Assembly: GCA_964291495.2 (NCBI GenBank) | Contig: OZ219872.1 | Span: forward strand, 544,001 to 608,000 | Source: Dehalococcoidia bacterium | Lineage (GTDB): Bacteria; Chloroflexota; Dehalococcoidia; UBA2979 | Direction of reading: 5' to 3' | Length of the DNA stretch: 64,000 bases | Shown: piece by piece, positions 417 to 40,343 of the stretch | Position numbering within the stretch: the stretch's first letter is position 1 | Layout: the number at the start of each line of letters is the position of its first letter | Notes under the pieces: generated by a model | Told to the model about the DNA's origin: nothing | Seen by the model: the letters and a program-made list of their open reading frames with translations, nothing else | Database searches by the model: none | Program-made: the position numbers and the translations under genes

Positions 417-1729
417 GCGCGCGACCGTCCGCGGGCGCACCGGCCGCGTTCCGCCTGCCGGAGCGCACCGAGCTGACGCTCGGCAACGGCCTGCGCGCCA
501 CCCTCGTGCAGTACGGCGCCGTGCCGAAGGCGTCCCTGCGGCTGTCCCTGCGCGCCGGCGGCCTCAACGAGCGCGAGGGCGCCTCGGGACTCGCGGTGCT
601 CGCCTCGCGCTACCTCAAGGAGGGCGCGGGCGACCTCGACGCGGGCGAGCTGGCGGCGCGCATCGCCCGCTGCGGCGGGCTGCTCGACACGCACAGCGGC
701 GACGACATCACGACACTCGACGTGCAGGTGCTGTCCGAGTCCACGCCCGAGGCGCTGCGGCTGCTCGGCGAGGTCGCCACCCGTCCGCGCCTGCCGGAGG
801 GCGAGCTGGAGCGGCTGCGCGCCGAGCTGCTCCGCGAGCTGGCCGTCGCCTCGACACAGCCCGACGTGCTCGCGCTGGAGCGCTTCCACACCGCGCTGTA
901 CGGGAACCACCCCTACGCCCGCGTGCTGCCCGCGCGGGAGGACGTGGAGGCGCTCGGCATCGAGGACGTGCGCGGCTTCGCCGGCGAGGAGTTCGGCGCG
1001 GCGCGGGCGCACGTCTACGTCGCGGGCCGCTTCGACCTCGATGCGACCGAGCAGGCGCTGCGCGAGGCCTTCGAGGGCTGGAACGCCGGACCGGAGCCGC
1101 TGATCGCGCCGCCCTCGCCGACCAGCGAGCGCGCGATCTACCTCGTGGACCGCCCCGGCGCGGAGCAGTCGACGATCCGCCTGGGGCTGCCGGCGCCCGA
1201 CCCCTCGCACGAGGACTACCTGCCGCTCACGGTGGTCGATACGCTGCTCGGCGGCGCGTTTATGTCGCGCATCACCCTGAACCTGCGAGAGGACAAGGGC
1301 TACACCTACTCGCCGCGCAGCACCATCGCCGTGCACTACCGCGACGCCTACTGGATGCACGCCTCGGACGTGACGACGGCGCACACCGGCGACTCGCTGC
1401 ACGAGATCTTCGCCGAGATCGACCGCCTGCGCGCCGAGCCGCCCTCGGCCGAGGAGCTCGAGGGCGTCCAGCGCTTCATGGCCGGCGGGATGCTGGTGCG
1501 CAACGCGACGCCCGCCGGCCTGCTCGGGCAGCTCGGCTTCCTCGACTTCCACGAGCTGGGCGCGAGCTACGCCGAGCAGTACGTCGATCGCGTCCATGCC
1601 GTCACGCCGCAGCAGGTCAGCGATCTCGCGACGGCGTACCTGCGCCCGGAGAAGATGACGATCGCGATCGGCGGGGACGCCTCGGTGATCGGCGAGCAAA
1701 TCGCCCCGTATGGTGCTATCACTACGTAG
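413..1729 (+). CDS. M16 family peptidase, non-catalytic partner subunit
   Basis: LGNGLR N-terminus and SRITLNLREDKGYTY motif; lacks HxxEH. Confidence 0.85.
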   Translation: MSARPSAGAPAAFRLPERTELTLGNGLRATLVQYGAVPKASLRLSLRAGGLNEREGASGLAVLASRYLKEGAGDLDAGELAARIARCGGLLDTHSGDDITTLDVQVLSESTPEALRLLGEVATRPRLPEGELERLRAELLRELAVASTQPDVLALERFHTALYGNHPYARVLPAREDVEALGIEDVRGFAGEEFGAARAHVYVAGRFDLDATEQALREAFEGWNAGPEPLIAPPSPTSERAIYLVDRPGAEQSTIRLGLPAPDPSHEDYLPLTVVDTLLGGAFMSRITLNLREDKGYTYSPRSTIAVHYRDAYWMHASDVTTAHTGDSLHEIFAEIDRLRAEPPSAEELEGVQRFMAGGMLVRNATPAGLLGQLGFLDFHELGASYAEQYVDRVHAVTPQQVSDLATAYLRPEKMTIAIGGDASVIGEQIAPYGAITT

Positions 1730-2481
1730 TGAGGGACCGATCCGTGTCGAACACCAACAGCCGCGCGCCGCAGATCGCCGACTTCGATCCGACGCTGCGG
1801 GTCAAGCGAAAGCCCTACCACGAGCGGCTGCAGGAGCTGCAGCTCGAGCTGCTGCACCTGCAGGTGCGGATGCGCGACGACGAGAACGCAGCGGCCGCGA
1901 TCATCTTCGAGGGCGTCGACGCGGGCGGCAAAGGCGGCACGATCGCGCGCCTCGCGGGACACCTCGATCCGCGCGGGGTGCGCGTCCACGGGATCGGCGC
2001 GCCGACATCGCTGGAGCTGCTGGGGCACTACCTGCAGCGCTTCCACGCGCGCATGCCGCGGCGCGGGCGGATCGCCGTCTTCGATCGCTCCTGGTACGGG
2101 CGCGTGCTGGTCGAGCGCGTCGAGGGCTTCACGCCGCGATCGGACTGGGAGCGCGGCTACCGCGAGATCAGCGAGTTCGAGCGCCAGTACCACGACGGCG
2201 GAACGGTCATCATCAAGTTCTGGATGCACATCTCCAGGGAGGAGCAGCTGCGCCGCTTCGAGCAGCGCGGCTCGGACCCGTTCAAGCGCTACAAGCTGAC
2301 CGCGGACGACTGGCGCAACCGCGATGCGTGGGACCTCTACATGCACGCGGCGGACGAGATGTTCGAGCGTACCCACACCGAGATCGCGCCCTGGGTGCTC
2401 GTCAGCGCCGAGCAGAAGCGCTACGCCCGCCTCGTCGTCCTCAGCACGGTGGTCGACCGGCTCCGCGAGGCGTTCGGGTAG
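1729..2481 (+). CDS. ppk2: Polyphosphate kinase 2 family protein
   Basis: EGVDAGGKGG Walker A, FDRSWYGRVLVERV, KFWMHIS motifs. Confidence 0.93.
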   Translation: MRDRSVSNTNSRAPQIADFDPTLRVKRKPYHERLQELQLELLHLQVRMRDDENAAAAIIFEGVDAGGKGGTIARLAGHLDPRGVRVHGIGAPTSLELLGHYLQRFHARMPRRGRIAVFDRSWYGRVLVERVEGFTPRSDWERGYREISEFERQYHDGGTVIIKFWMHISREEQLRRFEQRGSDPFKRYKLTADDWRNRDAWDLYMHAADEMFERTHTEIAPWVLVSAEQKRYARLVVLSTVVDRLREAFG

Positions 2482-2505
2482 CCAGCGGGACGCCCGCCAC
2501 GGCGC

Positions 2506-2871
2506 CTATTCGCGGACCAGCTCCCGGACCCCGGCCAGCGTCGCCTCGGCGCGCATCCAGCCGTCGAGCTGTCCGGCGGTCTCCTCGGACGGGTCGAGGA
2601 TGGCGCTGATACGGTTCGCGAACGGGGACCCCTCGGCGTAGATCCAGACCAGGTCCTCCTGGTATCCGGGCAGCTCCGCCGGGAAGTGCGCGAGACCCTG
2701 CCAGTGGAGCCGTCTCCCGATCCCCGCCCGGACCTGACGACCCAGCTTCTGCCTCCCGTAGGCGTTCCGCAGGTCGCGCATCGACGTCTTCCAGACACCC
2801 CCGCAGCTCTCGACGCGGCTCGCAAGCTGTTCCCAGAAGTCAACGTCCATCTCGCTCTTCCCCCGGCTCAT
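2506..2871 (-). CDS. Hypothetical protein (121 aa)
   Basis: Protein-like composition; TATGAT-like box upstream; no recognised motif. Confidence 0.65.
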   Translation of the reverse strand: MSRGKSEMDVDFWEQLASRVESCGGVWKTSMRDLRNAYGRQKLGRQVRAGIGRRLHWQGLAHFPAELPGYQEDLVWIYAEGSPFANRISAILDPSEETAGQLDGWMRAEATLAGVRELVRE

Positions 2872-2919
2872 GGCGCCTATTCACGAACATCATAGGCGCA
2901 CCTCGAGGCTGTCCATGAG

Positions 2920-3132
2920 GAGACCTTTGCGAAACTCCCACAAGCCCGATCCGCCCCCTCTCCCGGGGGAGAGGGCGGGGGTGAGGGGGAAGACTCCCGA
3001 GCGCCCCGAAACCCCCGATGGCGCAACGCAATCCTGGAGGTGGACCCTCCCTCACCCTAACCCTCTCCCCCGGGGAGAGGGGACCGGAGGGATGCGCTCA
3101 CTGCCCCGAGGAGAGGGTTACGCCAAGGTCTC
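2920..3132. mobile_element. MITE-like element with terminal inverted repeats and two inverted triplex-type motifs
   Basis: Left GAGACCTTTGCGAAAC (2920); right GTTACGCCAAGGTCTC (ends 3132); near-identical architecture at 10470-10764. Confidence 0.7.
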
Positions 3133-3172
3133 CTGCGGCGGAGGGCGTTGGCGTGGCGAGGGCAGGCGGCGC

Positions 3173-4087
3173 TCAGTCTCGCGCGGCTTCGCCTCCCGGC
3201 CGGCGGGGCGCGAGCGTCGCCGCGCCCTCGCGGGACTCGACGTACTCCCAGAGGGGCCAGGCGCCGCGCAGGCCGACGTCGTCGCCGCCGCTCGCGGGCA
3301 CCACCTGCGAGGGGTCGAGCAGCTGCGCGCTGTGCAGCTCGCCGAGCCGCTCGCGCAGCGGATCGAGCAGCAACGCGCCCGCCGAGGCGACCCCGCCGCC
3401 GATCACCACGCGCTCCGGCATGTAGGCCTCGATCGCGTTCGCGACGCCGACGGCGATCGCCGCCGCGATCTCGCGGAGCCAGCCGAGCGCTGCGGCGTCC
3501 CCCGCCTGCGCGCGTTTGGTGACCTCGGCGCCGCTCAGCCCGGAGAGCCGCTCGAGGGCGGGACCGGCCGCCAGCGATTCGAGGGTGCGCAGCTCGCGGT
3601 AGTCGATCGTCGACTGGCCGATCTCGGCCAGCGAGCGCTTGCCGTGCAGCAGTTGCCCGCCGATCACCACGCCGCCGCCGATACCGGTGCTGATCGTGAG
3701 GTAGACCATGTCGTCCGTCCCGCGGCCCGCGCCGTAGCGGTGCTCGCCGACGGCGGCGAGATCGGCGTCGTTGACGAGGACGGCGGGCAGGCCGCAGGCG
3801 TCGGCGAGGGGCTGCGCGGCGACGTGCCCCTCCCAGGCCAGCAGGTTGGGCATGCGCTCCGCGACGCCGTGTTCGTAGTCCACCACGGCCGGCACGCCGA
3901 CGACGGCGCCGCGCAGCGCCTCGCGCGCCTCGATCGCGACCTCGCGCATCAGGCGGGGCAGCGCGTCCGGATCGCCGGGCGGCGTCGGCCGCACCGAGCG
4001 GGCAACAATCCCGCCCTCGGGCGTGACGACGGCGACGCGCAGGTTCGTGCCGCCGAGATCGACGCCGAGGACCGCCTCGCGGGGCAT
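3173..4087 (-). CDS. ROK family sugar kinase (glucokinase-like)
   Basis: GVDLGGTN, VNDADLAAVGE, ISTGIGGG motifs. Confidence 0.9.
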   Translation of the reverse strand: MPREAVLGVDLGGTNLRVAVVTPEGGIVARSVRPTPPGDPDALPRLMREVAIEAREALRGAVVGVPAVVDYEHGVAERMPNLLAWEGHVAAQPLADACGLPAVLVNDADLAAVGEHRYGAGRGTDDMVYLTISTGIGGGVVIGGQLLHGKRSLAEIGQSTIDYRELRTLESLAAGPALERLSGLSGAEVTKRAQAGDAAALGWLREIAAAIAVGVANAIEAYMPERVVIGGGVASAGALLLDPLRERLGELHSAQLLDPSQVVPASGGDDVGLRGAWPLWEYVESREGAATLAPRRPGGEAARD

Positions 4088-4957
4088 CTAGGCCTCGCGC
4101 ACGGCGTGGCCGCCGAACTCGTTGCGCAGCGCGGCCAGCAGCCGCAGCGCGAAGGTGTGCTCGCCGCGCGAGGCGAAGCGCGCCCACAGCGAGCCCGCGA
4201 TCACGTCCACCGGCACGCCGCGCTCGACGCCCGCGATGACGGTCCAGCGGCCCTCGCCGGAGTCCTCGACGTAGGGCTGGATGCGGCTCAACTCGGGGTC
4301 GCCGGCCAGCGCGCGCTCGGCCAGCTCGAGCAGCCACGAGCGCACCACGGAGCCCTGCTGCCACAGCCCGGCGATCTCCGCGAGATCCAGCTCCTCGTCG
4401 TAGGCGTCGAGCAGCTCGAAGCCCTCGGCGTAGGCCTGCATCAGCCCGTACTCGATGCCGTTGTGCACCATCTTCACGTAGTGCCCCGCCCCGCTGGGGC
4501 CGAGGTGCGCGTAGCCGCCCTCGAGGGCGAGCGCCGCGAACAGCGGCTCGGCGTCCGTGAACGCGTCCGCTGCGCCGCCGACCATCAGGCAGTAGCCGTG
4601 ATCGAGGCCCCAGACGCCGCCGGAGACGCCGCAATCGAGGAAGCGCAGCCCGCGCTCGGCGGCCTGGCCGGCGCGGCGGATCGAGTCCGTGTAGCGGCTG
4701 TTGCCGCCCTCGATGATCAGGTCGCCCGCCGAGAGCAGGCCGAGCAGCTCCTGGAACGCGCTCTCCGTCGCCTCTCCCGCCGGGAGCATCAGCCAGACGG
4801 TGCGTGGCGGGTCGAGCGCGCCGACCATCGCCGCGAGCGAGTTGGCGTCCCGCAGGTCGGCGTCGAGGTCGTAGCCGACGACCTCGTGCCCGGCGCGGCG
4901 GAGGCGTTCGCGGATGCCGCCGCCCATGCGCCCGAGGCCGGCGAGGCCGATCTTCAC
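4088..4957 (-). CDS. gnd: 6-phosphogluconate dehydrogenase (decarboxylating, short type)
   Basis: GLGRMG, DCGVSGG, HYVKMVHNGIEYG, DSGEGRW, LRNEFGGH. Confidence 0.95.
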   Translation of the reverse strand: MKIGLAGLGRMGGGIRERLRRAGHEVVGYDLDADLRDANSLAAMVGALDPPRTVWLMLPAGEATESAFQELLGLLSAGDLIIEGGNSRYTDSIRRAGQAAERGLRFLDCGVSGGVWGLDHGYCLMVGGAADAFTDAEPLFAALALEGGYAHLGPSGAGHYVKMVHNGIEYGLMQAYAEGFELLDAYDEELDLAEIAGLWQQGSVVRSWLLELAERALAGDPELSRIQPYVEDSGEGRWTVIAGVERGVPVDVIAGSLWARFASRGEHTFALRLLAALRNEFGGHAVREA

Positions 4958-13088: not shown

Positions 13089-13583
13089 CTACGAGGTGTG
13101 CTGCGCGACGATCGCTCGCGCTTCGTCGCCGACGCCCGGCAACGCCGCCCGGAACGCGTCATCGTCCAGCGAGGCCGCGACCTTCGGATAGCCCGCGCGC
13201 TCGATCATCGGTCGCAGGCGGCCGCGCTCGAAACGCTCCAACACCCAGTCGAGGGGATCGCCGGCCGCCGTCGCGTCCAGCATCAGGCGCTCGTTGCCCA
13301 GCTCCGGCCCGTAGTGGTAGTGAGGCGCCTCGCGGAAACAGTCGAAGCGCAGCAGCTCGGTGTCCTGTCCAGCGACGTCGGCATAGATCTGAATGCACAG
13401 CCCGCCGTCGCCCGGGATCTCTCCCCGGTAGCTCATCGCGACCTCGACAGCCCCGGCGGCGATAACCTTCGTTCCCTTGTCCACGCCGACCCGTCCCTCC
13501 GCCTCGACCTGAACCCCCCGCTCGGGACGCTCGATCGAGGGCAGCAGTCTACCCGACTCACGACGCCGGACAGCCGGCGGCAC
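13089..13583 (-). CDS. Conserved hypothetical protein
   Basis: ELLRFDCFREAPHYHYGP motif; last gene of the operon; start uncertain. Confidence 0.7.
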   Translation of the reverse strand: MPPAVRRRESGRLLPSIERPERGVQVEAEGRVGVDKGTKVIAAGAVEVAMSYRGEIPGDGGLCIQIYADVAGQDTELLRFDCFREAPHYHYGPELGNERLMLDATAAGDPLDWVLERFERGRLRPMIERAGYPKVAASLDDDAFRAALPGVGDEARAIVAQHTS

Positions 13584-14818
13584 TAGCCGAAGACGCCGCG
13601 CTCCGCGAGCCGCGCCCGCTCGTCGCCCTCGATGCCGAACTCGCGCAGCACCTCGTGCGTGTGCTGCCCGGCGGCCGGCGCCGGTCCGCGCGGTCCGAGC
13701 TCGGCGGAGCGGATCTGGAACGGGGTGCCGAGCGTCTGGTATGGGCCGGCTTCGGGATGCTCGACATCCCGGATCCAGCCGTACTCCCGCACCTGCGGGT
13801 CGGCGATCACCTCGGGCAGTTCCGCGGCCGGAGCCCAGATCACCCCATGCTCGTCGAGGCGACCCGACCAGTAGGCGAGGTCGTGTTCGGCGAAGGCCTC
13901 CGCGATCACCGCCGCCAGCTCGCGGCCCTCCTCGGCGAAGCGCTCGGCGGCGCTGCGCTCGTCCAGCGCCAGTCCGGGCCGGTCAATCGCGGCGCAGAAC
14001 CGGTCCCAGTAGCGGTCCGGTTGCAGCATCACCAGCACGATCCAGCGCCCGTCCTTCGTCTGGTACGAGTTCCAGATCGGGTTCGTCGGCGCCTCGCGAT
14101 CGTGCCGCGGGGCGGCCTTGCCGGACACGAGCGCTGCGGAGAAGTCCGTGCCGACAGTCCACATTCCGGAGCCGTGGAGGGTGACCTCCACGTACTGCCC
14201 CTCGCCGCTCTGGTCGCGAAGCCTGAGGGCGGCGAGCACCGCCGCGAGGAGGTTGACGCTCGTCATGTGGTCGCCCTGGCCCGGCCGGTTGAGCGGCGGG
14301 GGCGAGCCGGGAGGCTGTTGCAGCGCCGCCATCACCCCGGAGCGCGCCCAGAACGCCGAGTAGTCGAAGCCCGCGCGATCCGCGTCCGGGCCCCGCGTCC
14401 CGTAGCCGGTGAGCGAGGCGTAGATGATCGAGGGACGCGCGGCGCGCAGCGCCTCCTCGGTGAGTCCGTAGCGTTCGCGCCGGGGCTGCGTGAGGTTGGT
14501 GAGGAAGACGTCCGCACGCTCGCACAGCCGCCGCACCAGGCCGGGGCCGTCCTCCCTCGTGAGGTCGACGGTGATCGATCGCTTGCCGCGGTTGTCGAGC
14601 TCGAAGGCGTAGTTGAGCGCGAAGTCGTGGTCGTAGCCGCTCGCGCGGAGGTCGTAGGAGCGGAAGGGGTCTCCGCCCGGCGGCTCCACCTTCACGACGT
14701 CCGCGCCGAGGTCGGCCATCAGGGCGCCGGCGCTCGGCGCGGCCAGCCAGTTGGCGGCCTCGATCACGACGATGCCGCTCAGCGGTCCGGACACGGCCGA
14801 CCCTCCTCCGCTACTCAC
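13583..14818 (-). CDS. CaiB/BaiF family III CoA transferase
   Basis: ADLGADVVKVEPPGGD, DNRGKRSITVDL, GFDYSAFWARSG. Confidence 0.93.
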   Translation of the reverse strand: MSSGGGSAVSGPLSGIVVIEAANWLAAPSAGALMADLGADVVKVEPPGGDPFRSYDLRASGYDHDFALNYAFELDNRGKRSITVDLTREDGPGLVRRLCERADVFLTNLTQPRRERYGLTEEALRAARPSIIYASLTGYGTRGPDADRAGFDYSAFWARSGVMAALQQPPGSPPPLNRPGQGDHMTSVNLLAAVLAALRLRDQSGEGQYVEVTLHGSGMWTVGTDFSAALVSGKAAPRHDREAPTNPIWNSYQTKDGRWIVLVMLQPDRYWDRFCAAIDRPGLALDERSAAERFAEEGRELAAVIAEAFAEHDLAYWSGRLDEHGVIWAPAAELPEVIADPQVREYGWIRDVEHPEAGPYQTLGTPFQIRSAELGPRGPAPAAGQHTHEVLREFGIEGDERARLAERGVFG

Positions 14819-15998
14819 GGGTGCAGATGAAGCTCGCCCCCATCGCGAACGGCCCGACCTCGCAGAGCGCGACCTCGGCGCCGGCGATCTGGCGAGGACC
14901 GGCGGTGCCCATCATCTGGCGGGCGGTCTCCGCGACGTGGGCCATGCCGTGCAGGCGCCCCTCGCCGAGGTTGCCGCCGGACGTGTTGAAGGGCTGCTCC
15001 CCGTCCAGAGCGAGGCGCTCGGCGGTCGCCCAGGCGGGGGCCTCGCCCTCGCCGCAGAAGCGGAAGGTCTCCATCCGCGTCCACATCATCGGGCTGAAGC
15101 CGTCGTAGAGGTGCAGCACGTCGACGTCCTCGGGGCCCAGGCCGGCGCTGCGATAGAGGTTCTCCGCGTGGAGCCCGTCCATCTCGTAGAGGTCCTCGAG
15201 CGACTCGATGATCCCGCCCCGCTCAAGGTTGTGCGGCGTCATGGCGTACCCGGCGATGTAGCCGCCGGGGTGGGGCGTGCCGCGTGCGCGGTCCTCGGTG
15301 GTCATGATCACGGCGCCGGCGCCGTCGACGGGCATGTCGTAATCGAAGAGGCTCATCGGCCAGGAGATGATGCGGGCGTTGAGGTAGTCGTCGCGCGTGA
15401 TCTCGCGCCCGTACCAGGCGGCGTTGTCGTTGAGCTGGGCGTTCTTGTGGGCGTTGAGCACGGCGTCGGCGAGCGCCTCGCGAGGCGCGCCGTACTTCTC
15501 GAGGTAGCGCTGGAAGTGGAGCGCCTGGCGCGGCCCGCCGCCGCCGTGGCCGTAGGGGACGGTGAACTGGTTCTCGCCCCCCGCCGCCGTCGCCGGATTG
15601 TCGTGATAACGCACACCGGCCGGGTGGTGCAGTGCGCGGTAGACGAGGGCGTAGTCGCAGGCCCCGGTGGCGAGCGCGTTCGCGGCCTCGATCACGCTCG
15701 CGGCGATCATCGACCAGTTCGACTGGTTGAACCAGCGCACGTTTGGGAGGCCGAGCATCCGCATCATGTAGGTCGCGGGGATCACGTCGTGGCCGACGAT
15801 CCCGCGGTTGACCCCCAGCGGGTTCGGGTAGGCGGCGATACCGTCGATCTGCGACAGCTCGATGCCGGCGTCCGCCACCGCGTTCGTCACCGCCTCGTAC
15901 GAGATGCTGCCGAGCGAACGAGGCGCATAGCGGTGGCAGGGGCTGTAGCCGACGCCGATGAAGCACGGGCGCTTGCCGGGCGAGAAGTCGATCGCCAT
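14811..15998 (-). CDS. Thiolase-like (SCP-x/Ltp2-type) protein
   Basis: LYDGFS, NTSGGNLGEGRLHG; paired with a DUF35 gene. Confidence 0.88.
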   Translation of the reverse strand: MAIDFSPGKRPCFIGVGYSPCHRYAPRSLGSISYEAVTNAVADAGIELSQIDGIAAYPNPLGVNRGIVGHDVIPATYMMRMLGLPNVRWFNQSNWSMIAASVIEAANALATGACDYALVYRALHHPAGVRYHDNPATAAGGENQFTVPYGHGGGGPRQALHFQRYLEKYGAPREALADAVLNAHKNAQLNDNAAWYGREITRDDYLNARIISWPMSLFDYDMPVDGAGAVIMTTEDRARGTPHPGGYIAGYAMTPHNLERGGIIESLEDLYEMDGLHAENLYRSAGLGPEDVDVLHLYDGFSPMMWTRMETFRFCGEGEAPAWATAERLALDGEQPFNTSGGNLGEGRLHGMAHVAETARQMMGTAGPRQIAGAEVALCEVGPFAMGASFICTRE

Positions 15999-16002
15999 GG
16001 CG

Positions 16003-16467
16003 CTACCCCTGGCCTTCGCGCGCGGGACGGAACTGCGGGAACACGATCTCCTCGCTCGCCCGCTCGAAGACGACCTCGACGGGCATCCCGGCGGCGATCT
16101 CGGCGAAGTCGCAGTCGAGCAGGTTCGCGAGGACGAACAGGCCCGCCTGCTCCTCGAGCTCCACCATCACCACGGGGTACGGCGTCTTCTCGCCGAAGGC
16201 GCGGATGTCGGAGTCCTCGTGGATGTAGTAGCTGTAGACCGTGCCCCGTCCGCTCACGTCGGCGAACGCGAGCTCCGCATCCTCCTCGTGGCAGTTCGTG
16301 CAGAAGTAGACGGGCGGATGGTGGAAGCGCAGGCAGCCCCCGCACTGCTGGATCGCGAGCCCCTCGCGGCGGGCCGCATCCCAGTAGGGCTCGGTCAGCT
16401 CGTCGGGTGCCGGGAGCACGCCGTACGGCGCCATCGTCTCCTTCCGCCCGCTCGGCCTGCTCACCAT
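16003..16467 (-). CDS. DUF35 Zn-ribbon/OB-fold protein
   Basis: YWDAAR, CxxC...CxxC, SGRGTVYSY. Confidence 0.9.
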   Translation of the reverse strand: MVSRPSGRKETMAPYGVLPAPDELTEPYWDAARREGLAIQQCGGCLRFHHPPVYFCTNCHEEDAELAFADVSGRGTVYSYYIHEDSDIRAFGEKTPYPVVMVELEEQAGLFVLANLLDCDFAEIAAGMPVEVVFERASEEIVFPQFRPAREGQG

Positions 16468-17761: not shown

Positions 17762-18064
17762 ATGCCTCGCGTGGTGTTCTCGCTGACCGTGGACAGTGAA
17801 GTCACGCAGGAGGGCGACGTCTACGTCTCGTACTGCCCCGCGCTGGATCTGTACAGCCAGGGGGACACGGAGGAAGAAGCGAGCACGAACCTGATTGAGG
17901 CGCTGCAACTCTTCGTCCAGTCGTGTTACGAGCGCGGCACGCTCGACGCGGTCATGAAGGAGCGCGGGTTCACCGTGGAACAGGACTCGCTCGCGACCGT
18001 TGAGGTGCGCCCTGATGGCGACTCGAGGCAATCGATCACTCTCCCCGTGGCCGTGCGCGCCTGA
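17762..18064 (+). CDS. hicB: HicB-like antitoxin (RNase H-like fold, no DNA-binding domain evident)
   Basis: YVSYCPALDLYSQGDTEEEA..NLIEALQLF motif. Confidence 0.88.
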   Translation: MPRVVFSLTVDSEVTQEGDVYVSYCPALDLYSQGDTEEEASTNLIEALQLFVQSCYERGTLDAVMKERGFTVEQDSLATVEVRPDGDSRQSITLPVAVRA

Positions 18065-18067
18065 CAC

Positions 18068-18294
18068 GTGCCCCGGATCACGCCCGTCCACTGGCGCGAC
18101 CTCGTGCGGGTCTTCGCAGCATGCGGATTCGCGGAACAGCGCACCACCGGATCGCACATCGTGATCACGCGGGAGGGCGTCGCCAGGCCCATCGTCATCC
18201 CGAAGCATCGATCGGTCGGCGTCTCGATCATCAGGAACAACATCCAACAGCGGGCTTGAGCCGTGAGCGGTACTTCGAGCTGCTCGACTCATAG
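18068..18294 (+). pseudogene. hicA: HicA mRNA interferase toxin, frameshifted near 18246
   Basis: RTTGSHIV and PIVIPKH motifs; frame stops at 18259, but the -1 frame continues TAGLSRERYFELLDS* to 18294, a typical HicA tail. Confidence 0.8.
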
Positions 18295-18328
18295 CACGAC
18301 CGCAGGCGCTTGACGGGCGGGCGGCGGC
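18292..18328 (+). repeat. Right copy of 37-bp direct repeat; contains TTGACG -35-like hexamer upstream of the riboswitch
   Basis: TAGCACGAccGCAGGCGCTTGACGGGCGGGCGGCGGC. Confidence 0.85.
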
Positions 18329-18369
18329 CCTGTTGTATTGGAGTTGCAAGGAGCCGACGGGTTCCCGCG

Positions 18370-18515
18370 ACGCAGCCGAACCTCGTTCGCGGATGGACGG
18401 GGGCGGGGGAACCACCGCAATGGGGTGAATCCGGCGGCGGCGAGGCCCGGAGCGGTCTTGGACGCCCTCGGTAGGCGACCCGAGCGCCGAACCCGTCAGC
18501 TAACCCCGCAGGCGT
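18370..18515 (+). ncRNA. c-di-AMP riboswitch (ydaO/yuaA leader)
   Basis: Ordered hallmarks GCCGAA, GGGGGAACCA, TGGGGTGAATC, TAGG, CCGAACCCGTCAGCTAACCCCGCAGGC; closing ACGC/GCGT pairing. Confidence 0.9.
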
Positions 18516-18642
18516 ACTTGGGGCGGCCTCCACCGGCCTGCCCGGCGCAATGCGCGCTGGCGGCATCTCGGTCGTTCCGGCATCGCCAGGCAGCACGCCG
18601 TGCGGCGTCCCCGCCGCACGCGGAGCGATAGAGGAGGCCGCA

Positions 18643-20079
18643 ATGGCTATCGAGTCCCCAACCCAGCTGAGCGCTGTCCTGCCGGGCAACGGCGCCGCCG
18701 AGGCTGCGGCGATCCTCGAGGAACCGTACGAGGCGATCAACATCCGCAACTTCGAGAAGGTGCCCCAGATCCAGGGCATCTCCGAGGAGCTGCGCCAGGA
18801 CATCCGCGTCGTCGCCCAGGTGCTGCCGTTCAAGTCCAACCGCTACGTGATGGACCACCTGATCGACTGGGACCGCGTGCCCGAGGATCCGATGTTCCGG
18901 CTCACCTTCCCGCAGCGCGACATGCTCGACCCGGAGCACTACGACCAGATGGCCGCGCTGCTCGCGAGCGGCGCGGACAACGCCGAGGTACGGGCGGCCG
19001 CCAACGAGATCCGGCTGACGCTGAACCCGCACCCCGCCGGCCAGATGGAGCACAACGTGCCGATGCTCAACGGGAAGCCGTTGCAGGGCATGCAGCACAA
19101 GTACCGCGAGACGGTGCTGTTCTTCCCCAGCCAGGGGCAGACCTGCCACGCCTACTGCACGTTCTGCTTCCGCTGGCCGCAGTTCGTCGGCATGGAGGGC
19201 CTCAAGTTCGCGATGCGCGAGGGCGAGCTGCTGCGCGACTACGTCGAGGAGCATCCCGAGATCAGCGACATCCTCTTCACCGGCGGCGACCCGCTGATCA
19301 TGAAAACGCGCATCCTGCGTGGCTACATCGAGCCGCTGCTCGAGCCCGGCCGCGCCCCGAACATCTCAACAATTCGGATCGGCTCGAAGGCGCTCGCCTA
19401 CTGGCCGCACCGCCTGATCTCCGACGACGACGCCGAGGAGTTGCTGGAGCTGTTCCGCAAGGTGGTCGACTCCGGCCGCCAGCTGGCGATGATGTCGCAC
19501 TTCAACCACCCGGTGGAGGTCGAGGCGCCGCCCGCCCTCGAGGCGATCCGCGTGCTGCGCGAGACTGGCGCGCAGATCCGCACGCAGACGCCGCTGCTGC
19601 GGCACATCAACGACGACGCGGACGCGCTCGCCCGAATGTGGCGGCTGCAGGCGCAGACCGGCTGCATCCCCTACTACCTGTTCGTCGCGCGCGACACCGG
19701 GGCGAAGCGCTACTTCGAGCTGCCGCTCTGGCGCTGCTGGGAGATCTTCCGCGAGGCCTACTCGAAGGTCAGCGGCGTCGCCCGCACCGTGCGCGGGCCG
19801 AGCATGTCGGCCACGCCCGGCAAGGTGCAGGTGCTCGGCGTCACCGAGGCGGCGGGCGAGCGGGTGATGGTGCTGCGCATGCTGCAGGGCCGCAACCCGG
19901 ACTGGGTGGGCCGCCCCTTCTTCGCCAAGTACAGCGAGACCGCGAGCTGGCTCGACGAGCTCGAGCCGGCCTTCGGCGAGAGCGAGTTCTTCTACGACCG
20001 CGAGCTGAACGAGCTGCTCGTCGGCGGCGGCAGCCCGTGGTCCAAGGACGAGCTCGCGCTGCCCCTCGTCGGCGGCTAG
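18643..20079 (+). CDS. KamA-family radical SAM aminomutase (lysine 2,3-aminomutase-like)
   Basis: HKYRETVL, CHAYCTFC (CxxxCxxC), FTGGDP, HFNHP, IPYY, SATPGK. Confidence 0.9.
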   Translation: MAIESPTQLSAVLPGNGAAEAAAILEEPYEAINIRNFEKVPQIQGISEELRQDIRVVAQVLPFKSNRYVMDHLIDWDRVPEDPMFRLTFPQRDMLDPEHYDQMAALLASGADNAEVRAAANEIRLTLNPHPAGQMEHNVPMLNGKPLQGMQHKYRETVLFFPSQGQTCHAYCTFCFRWPQFVGMEGLKFAMREGELLRDYVEEHPEISDILFTGGDPLIMKTRILRGYIEPLLEPGRAPNISTIRIGSKALAYWPHRLISDDDAEELLELFRKVVDSGRQLAMMSHFNHPVEVEAPPALEAIRVLRETGAQIRTQTPLLRHINDDADALARMWRLQAQTGCIPYYLFVARDTGAKRYFELPLWRCWEIFREAYSKVSGVARTVRGPSMSATPGKVQVLGVTEAAGERVMVLRMLQGRNPDWVGRPFFAKYSETASWLDELEPAFGESEFFYDRELNELLVGGGSPWSKDELALPLVGG

Positions 20080-20140
20080 CGGCGAGGCCGGCGCCCGCGC
20101 AGGGCGAGGCCCGCTCGCTGTCAAGCAGGGGTAGTGCAAC

Positions 20141-20542
20141 GTGAGCCGGCGGCCGCCGCTGTTTCCGCCGCTGGCCCCACGGCGCGTGTTGCTCCGCTGG
20201 GTGGCCTTAGGAGTCGTGTCCCTCGGAGGCACGTTCGCGATCCTCGTCGCCACGTTGAAGACATGGCCCTGGTTCGTGGTGCTGGCTGCTGCCCTGGCCT
20301 ACCAGTCGGCGGTCGTGCGGCTCTACAAGTGGAAGTGGGACGATTGGCCGGAGCGGACCCGGGGTGAGTTGTTCCGCAACGGCGCGCTCCTGGCCCTGGT
20401 CGTCGCCGCCGGCGCCGTGGTGTTCTGGTTCACGCCGGGCGGGTTCGCGGCGAAGATCGCGGCCTACGGCGTCTACGCCGCGGTGCTCCTCGCCCTGATG
20501 CTCATTGCTCGACGGGTCACCGATTGGAAATGGCTCGACTAG
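20141..20542 (+). CDS. Hypothetical membrane protein (about 4 TM)
   Basis: Four hydrophobic stretches; fills the gap. Confidence 0.65.
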   Translation: MSRRPPLFPPLAPRRVLLRWVALGVVSLGGTFAILVATLKTWPWFVVLAAALAYQSAVVRLYKWKWDDWPERTRGELFRNGALLALVVAAGAVVFWFTPGGFAAKIAAYGVYAAVLLALMLIARRVTDWKWLD

Positions 20543-20593
20543 CGGCGCGAGGATGACGAGTCATGGTCTCTCGTCAACGAATGTAGACAGGCC

Positions 20594-20977
20594 CTAGACG
20601 CGAGCGGCCCCTCCGGGGCCGCTGCCCTCGCCGAACTGCGTGACTGCCTCGGGCAGTTCAAGCTCGATTCCGGTTGAGCCCGAACCCGGACCCCGCGGCT
20701 CGTGCCGCTCGAAGCGGCCGATCGGGATTGCCGGCATCGTCGTGATGTGCGCGCCGGCGCGCACGCCCAGCTCCAGCGAGAAGTTCGCAATCGCCTCGTT
20801 GTCCGTGGCCTCGACGACGCTCACGAAGTCGTACTCGCCGAGCACGCCGTAGAGGCCCAGCGTCGCGACGCCCTCCGCCTGGATCTCGCCCTCGATACGC
20901 AGCAGGCGCTCGGGATCCTCCAGCGAGGCCGCTCGGCCCTCGGGCGTCATCGTCAGCAGCAGGAAGTACGTCGCCAT
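20594..20977 (-). CDS. GYD domain protein
   Basis: MATYFLLLTMTPEG, LGEYDFV motif. Confidence 0.85.
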   Translation of the reverse strand: MATYFLLLTMTPEGRAASLEDPERLLRIEGEIQAEGVATLGLYGVLGEYDFVSVVEATDNEAIANFSLELGVRAGAHITTMPAIPIGRFERHEPRGPGSGSTGIELELPEAVTQFGEGSGPGGAARV

Positions 20978-25073: not shown

Positions 25074-27356
25074 CTAGCTGGCGACGACGCCGTCGATGGC
25101 AATGACGCCCCCGGCCAGCAGGCGCTCGTAGTCCTCGCCGAGGCCGCGCGCCTCAAGCACATCGCGCGCGTCGGAGCCCGGCTTGGAGGCCGGGTCGCCG
25201 GGCTCCGGAGGCGTGCGCGAGAGCCGCGGCGAGGGGCCGTTGGTGGTGACGAGACCGATCTCGGCGTGCTCGCGCGTGAGGCTCAGCCCGTGGTCCTGCA
25301 CCCACTCGTCGGTCATCAGCTCGCGCACGGTGCGCGTCGGCGCCACGCCGGCGCCGACCGCCGTCAGCCGCTCCGTCCACTCCGCAGCCGTCGCCTGCGC
25401 GATGCGCTCGGCGAGGAACTCGCGAAGCGCGTCACCCTCGAGGTCCGCGGCGCCCTCGAGGCCCTCGACCATGCCGATGGCGGGTAGTTGGTCGGCCGTG
25501 GCGCCGAGGAAGAGCCAGCCGTCGCTGGCGCGGTAGAGGTGCTGGAGCGGGTTCCAGCCGAGCGCGTCCTGGCCGCGCAGCTCGTCCCAGACCTTGCCGT
25601 CGTAGTCCTGGAAGAACGGCGACTGCAGCGTGCAGGCGGTGTAGGCGAGGGCGGCCTTGACGTGCTGGCCCTCACCCGTCCGCTGGCGGTGAAACAGCGC
25701 CAGCGCGACGCCGTAGGCCCCCATCAGCCCCGTGCCGTAGTCGTTGATCGGGAAGGCCTGGCGGTAGGGGCGGTCGCCGGCGAAGCGCGCCTGCATCCCC
25801 GCCGCCGCCTGCGCGAGCTGCTCCCAGCCGGGACGCTCCTCCCACGGCCCCTCATGCCCGTAGGCGTTGATCGAGGCGTAGACGACACTCGGGTTGCGGC
25901 TGCGCAGTTCCTCGTAGTCCAGGCCGAGCACCTCGATGCGGCCGCCGCGCAGGTTCTGGACGACCACGTCGGCTTCCTCGGCGAGCTTCCAGAACAGCTC
26001 GCGGCCCTCCTCGGTCTTGAGGTCGAGCAGCATGCTCTGCTTGCCGCGGTTGACGTCGTTGTGCATGCGCACGCCGCCGGCGCGGTTCGGGTCGTCGATC
26101 TTCACGACCTCGGCCCCGAACTCGGCGAGCGTCCGCCCGCAAGTGGGTCCGGCGAGGATGATGCAGAGGTCGAGCACCTTGAGGCCCTTGAGCGCCTTGC
26201 GCAGCAGCCGCGTCTGCGGCGGCGACGCCGGCTCCGGCGCGCCCTCGAGCCACGGGCCGAGCACCTCGTCGCGGTCCGCGCCCGGGGCCGGGGCGGCGCT
26301 CCGGACCGCGCCGGGGGTTCCGTAGAGGCGCGGGTTCACCCCGGGCTGCAGCATCGTGCCGTACCCGGGGTCGTCGACCTCGATAACCTGCTTCGAGGTG
26401 CGGGCGTGCTCCTCGCGCATCCACTCGCTGGACTCGTAGATCACCGAGCAGCAGACGAGGGCGTCGTTGACGAACTGCTCCCACTCCTTCGCCGTGCGCG
26501 TCTTCATGAGCGCCGTCATGCGCCTCAGCAGCTCCTCGCTCTTCTCCGGATCCTTCGCGACCTCCTCGCTGAGGTGCAGGCCTTCCTCGCGCCAGGCGCC
26601 GAGGCCGGCCTTGTCGATGAAGCGGTCGATGAAGCGCTGGTTGGCGGCGTGGAACTGGACCCAGCGGCCGTCGCTGCACTCGTACTGGCGCACCCAGCCG
26701 GCGGACCGCTCGGGCGAGCGCTTCGCGGGGTCGTGCACGCGCAGGCCGGCCGATCCGATCGCGGCGAAGGTGGCGTCGAAGAGCGGCGCCTCGATGCGCT
26801 GCCCGGCCCCATCGCGCTCGCGGGCGTTGAGCGCCATCGCGATTGAGACCACGCCGAGGAAGGCGCCGTACGAGGACGAGATCGGCACCGCCGTGACTAC
26901 GGGGTTGTCGGCGCGTGCGAGGCCGTCGCCGGCGTTGGTGTAGCTGGCGGTCGCGGCGCCGAGCACGCCCTCCCAGGCCGCCATGCCGGCGCGCGGGTCG
27001 TCGGCGGCGAAGCCGGGGATCGAGCAGTAGATCAGCCGCGGGTTGGCCTCGATCATCGCGTCCGCGCCGAGGCCGAGGCGCTCCATCACGCCGGGCCGGA
27101 AGTTCTCGATCAGCACGTCCGCGCCGGCGACGAGGCGGCGCGCCGTCTCGAGGTCCTCGGAGCTCTTGAGGTCGAGCGTGATGCTGCGCTTGGCGCGGTT
27201 CCAGGTGGCGTTGGCCGGGGTGTCCCAGCGCGGGCCGCCGGGCGGGTCGATCTTGACCACGTCGGCGCCCTGGTCGGCGAGCAGCATGCCCGCGAGCGGC
27301 CCCGCGATGTAGTGCCCGAAGTCCACGACGCGAATGCCGTCCAGTGCCCCTGCCAT
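25074..27356 (-). CDS. Two-domain CaiB/BaiF CoA transferase
   Basis: Two CoA-transferase III repeats (AGPLAGMLLADQGA; AGPTCGRTLAEFGA). Confidence 0.92.
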   Translation of the reverse strand: MAGALDGIRVVDFGHYIAGPLAGMLLADQGADVVKIDPPGGPRWDTPANATWNRAKRSITLDLKSSEDLETARRLVAGADVLIENFRPGVMERLGLGADAMIEANPRLIYCSIPGFAADDPRAGMAAWEGVLGAATASYTNAGDGLARADNPVVTAVPISSSYGAFLGVVSIAMALNARERDGAGQRIEAPLFDATFAAIGSAGLRVHDPAKRSPERSAGWVRQYECSDGRWVQFHAANQRFIDRFIDKAGLGAWREEGLHLSEEVAKDPEKSEELLRRMTALMKTRTAKEWEQFVNDALVCCSVIYESSEWMREEHARTSKQVIEVDDPGYGTMLQPGVNPRLYGTPGAVRSAAPAPGADRDEVLGPWLEGAPEPASPPQTRLLRKALKGLKVLDLCIILAGPTCGRTLAEFGAEVVKIDDPNRAGGVRMHNDVNRGKQSMLLDLKTEEGRELFWKLAEEADVVVQNLRGGRIEVLGLDYEELRSRNPSVVYASINAYGHEGPWEERPGWEQLAQAAAGMQARFAGDRPYRQAFPINDYGTGLMGAYGVALALFHRQRTGEGQHVKAALAYTACTLQSPFFQDYDGKVWDELRGQDALGWNPLQHLYRASDGWLFLGATADQLPAIGMVEGLEGAADLEGDALREFLAERIAQATAAEWTERLTAVGAGVAPTRTVRELMTDEWVQDHGLSLTREHAEIGLVTTNGPSPRLSRTPPEPGDPASKPGSDARDVLEARGLGEDYERLLAGGVIAIDGVVAS

Positions 27357-27462
27357 GGTGCTCTCCTCCCGCCGGCGTCGGCCCGCCATGCCTCGCCCGC
27401 GCACTATAGCCCCCCTCGACAGGCACTCAGCGCGAGGGCGCGCGAGGTGGCTCAGCGAGGCG

Positions 27463-28509
27463 TCAGCGTGGCTCCTGCGCGTGGACCCAGGGCAGCACAT
27501 CGGCCGCGAACAGCTCGAGGGCGGCGAGGCCGTCTTCGAGGGACATGCCCTCCGGGCGGATGCCCAGCGTCCAGCCGGTGAACGGGATCGGGCCGGACAG
27601 CGCTGCGACGTCCGCCTGCATCGCCTCGATCCACATCGCGGGCGTGCCGATCAGCTCGCCCTCGGTGGCGAACGAGGCGCCCGAGTCCGCCGCCACTTGC
27701 GTGACCTCGCGAGGGTACTCGTCGCGTCCGGCGAACTCGCCGGCGGCCATGTACTCGGTGCGGCCCTCGATGAACGGCGCGCCGATGCGGACCGCCTCGG
27801 CGGCATCCGCCGCGATGTAGCCGTTGCGCACGATCGTGAAGTCGAGCGTCGCGGGGTCCACGCCCTGCTCCGCGGCGAGCGCACAGTAGTCGGCGTAGAC
27901 GCCGCGCCCGATCGCTTCGCGGTGCAGCGTGTTCACGCCGAGGCCGAAGCGCACCGCGCGCGCCAGCGCGGGGCGGCTGCGCGCGGTGACGTAGACCTTC
28001 GGGTGCGGCTGCTGGATCGGCGGCGGCAGCAGGTCGACGCCGCTCGCGCTGTGGTAGCGGCCCGCGTGGCTGAAACCGCGCTCGCGCAGCGCGCCGAGCA
28101 GGATCGTCAGCGCCTCGTCCGTGCGGTCGCCGCGCTCGCGGCGCGGCACGCCGAACGCCTCGAAGTCGCCCTCGCGGTAGCCGACGCCGATGCCGAGCAT
28201 CGCCCGCCCGTTCGAGAGCAGATCGAGGACGGCGAGCTGCTCGGCGACGTGCACGGGGTGGTAGAGCGGGAGGAGCAGCGGCTGCGTGGCGAGGCGGATC
28301 CGCTCGGTCTCGCGCGCGAGCGCGGTCAGGGTGAGGAAGGGAGTCGGGTTGTAGCCGATCGCGACCGAGTGGTGCTCCGGCACGACGATGAAGTCGTAGC
28401 CGAGCCGGTCGGCGGCGCGGGCGTACTCGATCCACTCCTCGTAGACCTCGGCCCAGCTCTGCGAGGCGTCCGGGGCGCGCTTGAACTTGACGCCGATGCC
28501 GATCTCCAT
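27463..28509 (-). CDS. LLM class oxidoreductase
   Basis: VPEHHS, LPLYHPVHVAEQ, PPPIQQPHP. Confidence 0.9.
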   Translation of the reverse strand: MEIGIGVKFKRAPDASQSWAEVYEEWIEYARAADRLGYDFIVVPEHHSVAIGYNPTPFLTLTALARETERIRLATQPLLLPLYHPVHVAEQLAVLDLLSNGRAMLGIGVGYREGDFEAFGVPRRERGDRTDEALTILLGALRERGFSHAGRYHSASGVDLLPPPIQQPHPKVYVTARSRPALARAVRFGLGVNTLHREAIGRGVYADYCALAAEQGVDPATLDFTIVRNGYIAADAAEAVRIGAPFIEGRTEYMAAGEFAGRDEYPREVTQVAADSGASFATEGELIGTPAMWIEAMQADVAALSGPIPFTGWTLGIRPEGMSLEDGLAALELFAADVLPWVHAQEPR

Positions 28510-40268: not shown

Positions 40269-40343
40269 GGGCCCGTAGCTCAGCGGTAGAGCAGTGGACT
40301 TTTAATCCATCGGTCGGAGGTTCGATCCCTCCCGGGCCTACCA
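40269..40343 (+). tRNA. tRNA-Lys (UUU)
   Basis: GGGCCCG acceptor stem, TAGCTCAG D arm, GTGGA-CTTTTAA-TCCAT anticodon arm, GGTTCGATCC T arm, encoded CCA. Confidence 0.96.

Follow-up and report, generated by a model that had tools for sequence, protein, structure and literature searches.

What does an aminomutase make, and for what purpose, when its gene stands alone behind a second-messenger riboswitch? The question is raised by a stretch of 64,000 nucleotides (nt) from a Dehalococcoidia bacterium (GCA_964291495.2, contig OZ219872.1, positions 544,001 to 608,000; hereafter the window, whose own numbering is used below). On its plus strand, an aptamer for cyclic di-adenosine monophosphate (c-di-AMP) at 18374..18522 is followed by a gene at 18643..20079 for P0001, a radical S-adenosylmethionine (SAM)/pyridoxal phosphate (PLP) 2,3-aminomutase of 478 amino acids (aa), placed in an IdnL4-type clade and probably a glutamate 2,3-aminomutase. 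We hold with moderate confidence that, in this unit, c-di-AMP represses a one-gene synthesis of beta-glutamate for osmotic stress. The preliminary description of this DNA had suggested a one-gene route to a beta-amino-acid osmolyte and left the substrate unnamed. We sharpen the substrate to probably glutamate because Arg replaces Asp293 of lysine 2,3-aminomutase (LAM), Ser or Val replaces Asp330, and enzymes of the same clade occur in the position of IdnL4.

A c-di-AMP riboswitch before a single gene

The ydaO-type riboswitch that had been read upstream of the gene from its motifs is real. A cmscan search against Rfam matched 18374..18522 (+ strand) to RF00379 (c-di-AMP, ydaO/yuaA) with 61.9 bits (E 6.2e-12; gathering score 38 bits). 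The alignment spans model positions 11-127 of 134 (1-10 and 128-134 are unaligned), with the cores GGGGGAACCA, GGGGUGAAUCC and CCGAACCCGUCAGCUAACC all aligned at high posterior probability and a single 31-nt insertion in a variable stem. The aptamer again scored 61.9 bits in a search of the entire genome, and 12 relatives have it in their aligned leaders too. The aptamer end and the start codon ATG 18643 are ~120 nt apart on the same strand. In the genome (3.08 Mb, 93.7% complete), RF00379 matches twice, and a single gene carries a diadenylate cyclase domain (PF02457, 139.7 bits), which the preliminary description had left to be looked up.

The linkage recurs among relatives of P0001. In 12 of 80 reference loci (the best 80 of the 173 stretches that encode a relative in species representatives of GTDB), an aptamer lies ~90-155 nt upstream of the homologue; all are Dehalococcoidia (12/12 Dehalococcoidia loci), among them L016, whose protein is 68% identical. 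When the class was sampled evenly, the gene was found in 12 of 150 other Dehalococcoidia genomes, and at three of the 12 loci a riboswitch precedes it (L131, 73% identity; L139, 63%; L141, 59%). The genomes of 67 of the 80 reference loci contain no RF00379 match anywhere, and one further genome (G031) has matches elsewhere and none in the locus. A deltaproteobacterial locus (L044), from a genome with two RF00379 matches, was considered as linked and set aside, since cmscan of the locus was empty and the matches lie on other contigs. Co-occurrence across homologues, which the preliminary description had listed as a check, thus extends over 59-98% protein identity; it is conserved rather than due to chance, yet not universal.

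In L139, a sigma70-like promoter (TTGCCA-17-TATAAT, 1040-1068, 11/12 matches) is followed by the aptamer (1074-1216, 99.2 bits), by a hairpin (1227-1257) that runs into the U-tract UCUUUUUCU (-21.8 kcal/mol, z -3.8, 1/200 shuffles as good) and, after this hairpin, by a Shine-Dalgarno (SD) sequence and an ATG at ~1312. A second c-di-AMP riboswitch (67.1 bits, with its own terminator-like site) lies 3' of the aminomutase gene and before a class-III aminotransferase.

The gene in the window is monocistronic and its flanking genes are unrelated, in keeping with its initial portrayal as a stand-alone gene without partners for lysine fermentation, beta-lysine acetylation or EF-P modification. In the genome, neither AblB (best TIGR03827 match 19 vs 205.1 bits) nor EpmA (253.9 vs 286.9 bits; we take this near-EpmA frame of 493 aa to be LysRS) exceeds its cut-off, so this part of the statement now holds genome-wide, while lysine-fermentation genes are absent among the 16 open reading frames (ORFs) scanned with Pfam between 10.8 and 30.3 kb of the window. 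A second KamA-type gene was not found in the genome either. Because these genes are missing and the neighbours are unrelated, we regard the unit as one RNA plus one gene.

In Dehalobacter sp. CF, ablA is under the control of a tandem Na+/c-di-AMP riboswitch, according to passages of White et al. 2022 (PMC9337991); these passages also associate Na+ riboswitches with eam, name osmotic and cell-wall remodelling genes as targets of c-di-AMP riboswitches, and describe the gene as OFF when ligand is bound in the characterised cases. The window resembles the Dehalobacter unit in its aptamer class, in the same-strand 5' leader and in a radical-SAM 2,3-aminomutase of a kind tied to beta-amino-acid osmolytes, and the orthologous leader of L139 has the aptamer-then-terminator layout. 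It differs in having one aptamer, no Na+ aptamer, no recognisable terminator and a high-GC Dehalococcoidia host, and its enzyme belongs to another deep clade that is neither AblA nor Eam.

By analogy with the characterised c-di-AMP riboswitches, whose OFF logic Nelson reportedly described in 2013, and with the terminator-bearing L139 leader, the window riboswitch would act as an OFF switch. The transcript would consist of the riboswitch in the 5' leader and one gene. P0001 would convert L-glutamate to beta-glutamate, with Arg177 holding the alpha-carboxylate, as we take Arg134 to do in LAM, and Arg350 binding the gamma-carboxylate. At high c-di-AMP, when K+ and turgor are sufficient, the ligand-bound aptamer would switch the gene off; upon osmotic upshift, c-di-AMP would fall, the gene would be expressed, and beta-glutamate would accumulate as a non-metabolised anionic compatible solute that also serves as counter-ion to K+. 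If true, one messenger would balance K+ uptake against the production of an organic counter-ion.

Other arrangements were seen around these riboswitches. The second RF00379 match of the genome (G000:C6:701230-701381, or 1501-1652 of locus L001; 73.1 bits) lies ~93 kb past the window end and precedes a zinc-ribbon ORF of 70-82 aa (CPRC...CIAC) for which no Pfam family exceeds its cut-off; such a target is unusual. Ten of 12 related genomes (68-76 bits) and the genome of L016 (93 bits) also contain a second match. In L141 (729-2829), a 127-aa ORF that matches no Pfam family separates the riboswitch from the aminomutase homologue downstream. The L139 locus (1040-4280) has a GAF-domain gene upstream of its riboswitch pair.

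The enzyme, its clade and its probable substrate

Judged by profile scores, fold and motifs, P0001 is an aminomutase-type PLP/radical-SAM enzyme of the KamA superfamily that falls outside all curated families. In Pfam it matched only Radical_SAM, and this below the threshold (21.6 vs 29.5 bits). It scored 131 bits against TIGR00238 (KamA family; cut-off 199.2, not reached), 102.8 against the arginine 2,3-aminomutase model of NCBIfam (600), 100.9 against AblA/TIGR03820 (525.4), 95 against EpmB/TIGR03821 (369.3), and 79.9 against clostridial Eam/TIGR04368 (650). The sole related solved structure is LAM (2A5H), matched by phmmer at E 2.9e-20 and by hmmsearch with a 37-sequence family profile at E 2.9e-37. 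An AlphaFold model built on the 37-row alignment (mean pLDDT 89.7, pTM 0.88) had 2A5H as its best Foldseek match (E 1.6e-18, TM 0.68 on the target), with NifB as the next fold (2.4e-5).

The [4Fe-4S] motif C168-x3-C172-x2-C175 (CHAYCTFC, codons 19144..19167, + strand) aligns to the cluster motif of 2A5H, and its cysteines are kept in at least 35 of 37 family rows. Arg177 (codon 19171-19173; R in 33/37 rows) aligns with LAM Arg134 and Lys394 (K in 36/37) with LAM Lys337, residues that we take to bind the alpha-carboxylate and PLP, respectively. With cluster motif, R177, K394 and 2A5H fold all present, the radical SAM/PLP aminomutase-like character first ascribed to the gene is borne out. P0001 shares these features with LAM (KamA/AblA, C. 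subterminale) and differs from it in sequence (~21% identity), in the replacement of Asp293 by Arg and Asp330 by Ser, in ~40 aa more at the N-terminus, and in having no AblB partner; LAM Cys268, presumably a zinc ligand, aligns with Asp325 of P0001.

The two Asp positions carry the substrate argument. Arg350 (codon 19690..19692, + strand, motif RDTG) falls at the LAM Asp293 position (phmmer, hmmsearch, MAFFT), and Ser387 at the LAM Asp330 position in MAFFT with canonical members, seven residues before the PLP lysine (Ser387 to Lys394, SMSATPGK, codons 19801..19824, + strand). In three independent alignments the region around the PYY motif has no gaps, and they agree on both placements. Position 350 is R in 21 of 37 family rows and in all core-clade rows. 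V occupies position 387 in 21 of the 37 rows and S in 11, while Asp/Asp is kept in all 10 canonical KamA/AblA-type rows of the alignment with canonical members. Lepore 2005 reportedly describes LAM Asp293 and Asp330 as the residues that bind the epsilon-ammonium group of lysine. Where a basic residue replaces a lysine-binding Asp, lysine is a less likely substrate than an amino acid with a carboxylate in its side chain, and the substrate of P0001 is probably glutamate.

Core family, archaeal members and sister clade alike have Arg at the LAM Asp293 position. The signatures of the core clade remain almost the same between archaea and the window, and CHAYCTFCFR, RDTG and RTVRGPSMS..PGK are kept in 12/12 class-sampled homologues. 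A deeper subclade of five rows is without Arg350, so specificity varies within the wider family.

A maximum-likelihood tree of 48 rows (LG+G4, with Shimodaira-Hasegawa-like approximate likelihood-ratio support, SH-aLRT) split 13 canonical rows (3 true EpmB, 1 true AblA, 9 other KamA-type) from the 35 rows of the P0001 family and its sister clade, with SH-aLRT 100 on both sides. A first tree had given 93/94 for the same split and held a wrong ORF pick, L127, on a branch of 4.4; this row was left out of the second tree. The phylogeny against KamA, EpmB and AblA, proposed in the preliminary description as a check, therefore places P0001 with none of them; the grouping with EpmB or catabolic KamA that would have spoken against that description did not appear, nor did one with osmolyte KamA/AblA. 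For Eam, no true sequence was available, as 0 of 121 genomes passed the TIGR04368 cut-off; 'near-Eam' matches were rejected as true Eam because they keep Asp/Asp, as do the best matches of the Eam model, and are thus lysine-type. Family members score 103-155 bits on TIGR00238 and canonical paralogues in the same genomes 207-366 (21 other genomes). Cross-scores with the AblA, Eam, arginine and EpmB models run from 200 to 550 bits among canonical sequences vs 47-130 with the P0001 family and sister clade.

Evidence for glutamate also comes from actinomycetes. For the incednine cluster, passages of PMC11284099 describe a genetic requirement for IdnL4 in the conversion of L-Glu to beta-Glu, and the decarboxylation of beta-glutamate by IdnL3. 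Homologues of P0001 at 45-53% identity occur on annotated actinomycete plasmids (tblastn). The order on the plasmid of Streptomyces sp. NBC_00334 is type I polyketide synthase (PKS), proline-iminopeptidase-family hydrolase, aminomutase, PLP aminotransferase-fold enzyme, AMP-binding enzyme and PKS; judged by gene order, this is the layout of macrolactam beta-amino-acid starter cassettes with the aminomutase in the IdnL4 position. An Amycolatopsis homologue adjoins a Glu-dehydrogenase-like gene, a PLP enzyme and coenzyme A (CoA)-ester enzymes. Both enzymes carry RDTG and share a clade (SH-aLRT 97) with P0001 and the archaeal enzymes. The Streptomyces enzyme is 52% identical to P0001, and the two have CHAYC.[FY]CFR, RDTG and R..RGP.MS..PGK in common. 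Unlike IdnL4, the window gene lies outside a PKS cluster, has no adjacent IdnL3-type PLP enzyme and is riboswitch-controlled, and its setting looks like primary stress metabolism. The row nearest the Amycolatopsis enzyme in the tree is P0126, a metagenomic protein of 882 aa in which a Lys/Orn N-monooxygenase-type domain (PF13434, 336 bits) is fused to an RDTG-bearing family member.

Two other glutamate-type lineages offer a comparison. Clostridial Eam reportedly has Lys and Asn at the LAM Asp293 and Asp330 positions (Ruzicka and Frey 2007). On this basis, it is like P0001 in its proposed reaction, in a basic residue for Asp293 and in a small polar one for Asp330, with Lys/Asn vs Arg/Ser(Val) in the P0001 family. 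The replacement of Asp293 looks independent of Eam, because the best matches of the Eam model cluster with canonical KamA. A methanogen glutamate 2,3-aminomutase, MmarC7_1783, was reportedly described by Tunckanat and colleagues in 2022 with an N-terminal extension of ~160 aa; the proposed reaction and osmolyte role are alike, and the extension is absent in P0001. The KamA-type gene of M. jannaschii passes the TIGR00238 cut-off (E<=1e-50), which the P0001 family fails, and this suggests that the methanogen enzyme is of a different lineage. One candidate link to the methanogen enzyme, P0246 (608 aa), was dropped since it heads a bacterial sister clade instead. That clade (P0246, P0231, P0288, P0297 and P0381; Balneolaceae, Cyclonatronaceae, Bacteroidales, Geopsychrobacter and others) consists of proteins of 520-610 aa with Arg at the LAM Asp293 position and an N-terminal extension of ~100 aa.

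The family is widespread. In a 90%-clustered database, all 8000 of 8000 scored candidates matched (i.e., at least 8000), the best 120 at 62-91% identity, and HMMER against 1.84 billion representatives returned 3848 proteins at E<=0.001, of which 340 reached E<=1e-30. Hosts of the best 80 reference loci include Dehalococcoidia, Ignavibacteria, Bacteroidota, ammonia-oxidising Thaumarchaeota, Campylobacterota, Mycoavidus, Pseudomonas and Persephonella, among others. Bacteroides thetaiotaomicron, a control genome, gave a TIGR00238 match at E<=1e-5 that is below the cut-off and gone at E<=1e-50; this cultivable gut bacterium therefore has a divergent, non-canonical KamA-type gene and might serve as an experimental model.

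Gene contexts and competing explanations

ORFs around the gene in the 80 loci were clustered and representatives scanned with Pfam; neighbour counts are lower bounds because the greedy longest-ORF pick missed the query gene in 5/80 loci. An MscS gene adjoins the family gene in 10/80 loci (7/9 from ammonia-oxidising archaea, AOA, and 3 from Bacteroidota), a Na+/H+ exchanger gene is present in 8/80 and DUF389 in 18/80; the Bacteroidota relatives occupy a slot beside MscS and Na+/H+ exchanger genes. A glutamine synthetase (GS) gene lies immediately 3' in 7/9 AOA loci, the remaining AOA loci being cut by contig ends; the AOA relatives are thus flanked by MscS on one side and GS on the other. In the three AOA genomes checked, this GS is one of two GS genes and the family member is the only KamA-type gene (3/3 each). 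The osmotic role put forward in the preliminary description is thus backed by MscS, Na+/H+-exchanger and second-GS neighbours in other phyla, as well as by the recurrence of the riboswitch in divergent Dehalococcoidia homologues.

Nitrosopumilus maritimus contains ~730 mM beta-glutamate, its most abundant identified metabolite (passages of PMC8269262). A literature search found no published gene assignment for beta-glutamate in AOA, and the P0001 family is the best candidate. Taken jointly, and more tentatively than for the window unit itself, the clade may be a third, independently evolved glutamate 2,3-aminomutase lineage (Arg for LAM Asp293) that serves as the primary-metabolism source of beta-glutamate in AOA (~0.7 M), sponge-associated Dehalococcoidia, Ignavibacteria, Bacteroidota and others; in Dehalococcoidia, c-di-AMP would directly gate the synthesis.

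Several points weigh against the osmolyte reading of the window. Neither an osmotic gene nor a PKS gene or adjacent PLP enzyme is among the neighbours of the window gene, i.e., an informative neighbour is absent. The homologue has no linked riboswitch in 68/80 reference loci and none within 1.5 kb in 9/12 class-sampled loci. Non-saline hosts (Nitrosotalea, groundwater Ignavibacteria) also carry the family; because of these and of the PKS, CoA-ester and N-monooxygenase-fusion occurrences, an osmolyte role does not follow from family membership. Where a PLP aminotransferase-fold partner is present, beta-glutamate may be converted further instead of being the final product. The IdnL4 link runs through a context-defined Streptomyces homologue and not through IdnL4's own sequence; passages of PMC11284099 state that IdnL4 activity was unseen in vitro, and no clade member is known to be active in vitro.

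The window leader (18523..18642, + strand) adds to these points. It holds no terminator-like site, the sole one within 18000-20700 being at 20404. Its 8-bp GC hairpin at ~18600-18619, which has no U-tract, was tried as an intrinsic terminator and was no better than shuffles (z -0.6). Just past the aptamer, GCGGCCUCC looks complementary to the SD region GGAGGCCGC, and the minimum-free-energy fold pairs the two; SD sequestration by this segment was nonetheless rejected, as 47/500 shuffles were as good in the window (RNAduplex). In 12 relatives, 48-289 of 500 shuffles were as good, with a mismatch in most. The leader is kept among close relatives, and no covariation was shown in it, with double changes in 3/81 predicted pairs among 13 sequences that are too alike. 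The G+C content around the locus is 69-72%.

Among the alternatives, the one that survives best is that the final product is not beta-glutamate, either because P0001 acts on another acidic or neutral substrate or because beta-glutamate is a mere intermediate towards 3-aminobutyrate, beta-glutamine or a CoA ester. We regard this as rather unlikely. The substrate call draws on two positions plus context, and the deeper subclade without Arg350 shows that specificity varies. A class I/II aminotransferase-fold gene follows the aminomutase in 11/80 loci (Ignavibacteria, a Caldilineales and a Chitinophagaceae genome), and such a gene also accompanies it in Streptomyces and Amycolatopsis; the gene sits in the IdnL3 position (L021 3918-5228, L142 10356-11633 and L143 10256-11491). 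The PLP enzyme of the actinomycete cassettes is 50% identical between Streptomyces and Amycolatopsis and 32% identical (E 4e-62) to this partner, and organisms with such an IdnL3-position (beta-glutamate decarboxylase) enzyme may make 3-aminobutyrate. The second GS that follows the gene in AOA may also point to further conversion. GS of Methanohalophilus turns beta-glutamate into beta-glutamine (passages of PMC1224877). The class-III aminotransferase with its own c-di-AMP riboswitch after the L139 gene points the same way. However, no such partner adjoins the gene in the window genome, N. maritimus accumulates beta-glutamate itself, and the core-clade signatures hardly change from archaea to the window. 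Aspartate would not be a meaningful substrate, because the product of a 2,3-aminomutase would again be aspartate.

It is also conceivable, though we consider it improbable, that the riboswitch is real and the role non-osmotic, e.g., in nitrogen or carbon metabolism, in the cell envelope, or in supplying a building block for secondary metabolites. This would agree with the PKS and CoA-ester clusters and non-saline organisms in which the family occurs, with the lack of an osmotic neighbour in the window, and with c-di-AMP riboswitches that control cell-wall remodelling genes (in passages of PMC9337991). It is countered by MscS, Na+/H+-exchanger and GS neighbours that recur in two phyla, by the sponge-associated or marine labels on the records of close relatives and on the matching RNA libraries, and by the published riboswitch-controlled aminomutases, which are osmolyte genes.

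That P0001 is instead a lysine 2,3-aminomutase, making beta-lysine as an osmolyte, for EF-P modification or in lysine fermentation, is very improbable: the relatives' label 'lysine 2,3-aminomutase' in source records, the LAM fold and cofactor motifs, and the published c-di-AMP control of ablA speak for it, but both lysine-binding Asp are replaced in P0001 and kept in canonical rows, the AblA and EpmB scores are far below cut-off, the clade is separate at SH-aLRT 100, and neither AblB nor EpmA exceeds its cut-off in the genome.

What is already known comprises the riboswitch class, riboswitch control of ablA (and of eam with Na+) and the genetic evidence for IdnL4. New relative to the print that we found (which leaves aside the supplementary tables of White et al. 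2022) are an IdnL4-type, Arg-bearing clade under c-di-AMP control, its primary-metabolism setting and its occurrence in Dehalococcoidia. The c-di-AMP wiring in another phylum lends independent regulatory support to the family as the AOA source of beta-glutamate. If the assignment to glutamate holds, thousands of database entries named 'lysine 2,3-aminomutase' would be misnamed, a gene could be assigned to a widespread route by which a major marine organic solute is made, and the c-di-AMP riboswitch regulon would reach beyond the transport of solutes and K+ and take in the production of an anionic solute by a new enzyme lineage. With one RNA and one gene, the unit also offers a compact test system.

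Start codon, expression and flanking genes

The start codon was taken as ATG 18643, six bases after the SD sequence GAGGAGG (18631..18637, + strand, read from the sequence; AGGAGG is invariant in 13/13 aligned leaders). The start of the longer ORF, ATG 18550, was set aside because relatives keep the SD and an ATG or GTG exactly at this place, with indels of 1-2 nt upstream. Expression of the gene in situ is possible: contigs of one sponge metatranscriptome library match 18604-18898 and parts of the coding sequence exactly and are compatible with it, with DNA carry-over also possible. The aptamer is uncovered by contigs from RNA runs, a type of cover that cannot show absence, transcript start or attenuation.

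The upstream flank of the unit holds a HicB/HicA-like pair and an opposite-strand DNA ligase gene. The pair lies directly 5' of the riboswitch (17762-18259, + strand) and consists of a HicB/antitoxin-like ORF, whose weak PHD_like match (25.1 bits) does not reach the cut-off, and an ORF of the HicA toxin family (38.2 bits). Downstream, a 133-aa ORF is followed by an opposite-strand GYD-domain gene, and a luciferase-like gene is also among the neighbours. The 133-aa ORF (20141-20542) was rejected as an operon partner, as it had no Pfam match and no tblastn match in the 80 loci. Besides the aptamer, Rfam matched only a tRNA (40269-40340) in the window.

Farther out, 13583-16467 and 25074-27500 (both - strand) encode family III CoA-transferases, a thiolase-like protein and a ChsH2-type OB-fold/zinc-ribbon protein, and short-chain dehydrogenase genes lie at 10.8-12.5 kb. 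Together, these genes look like a degradation set of the lipid or steroid side-chain type, unrelated to the riboswitch unit.

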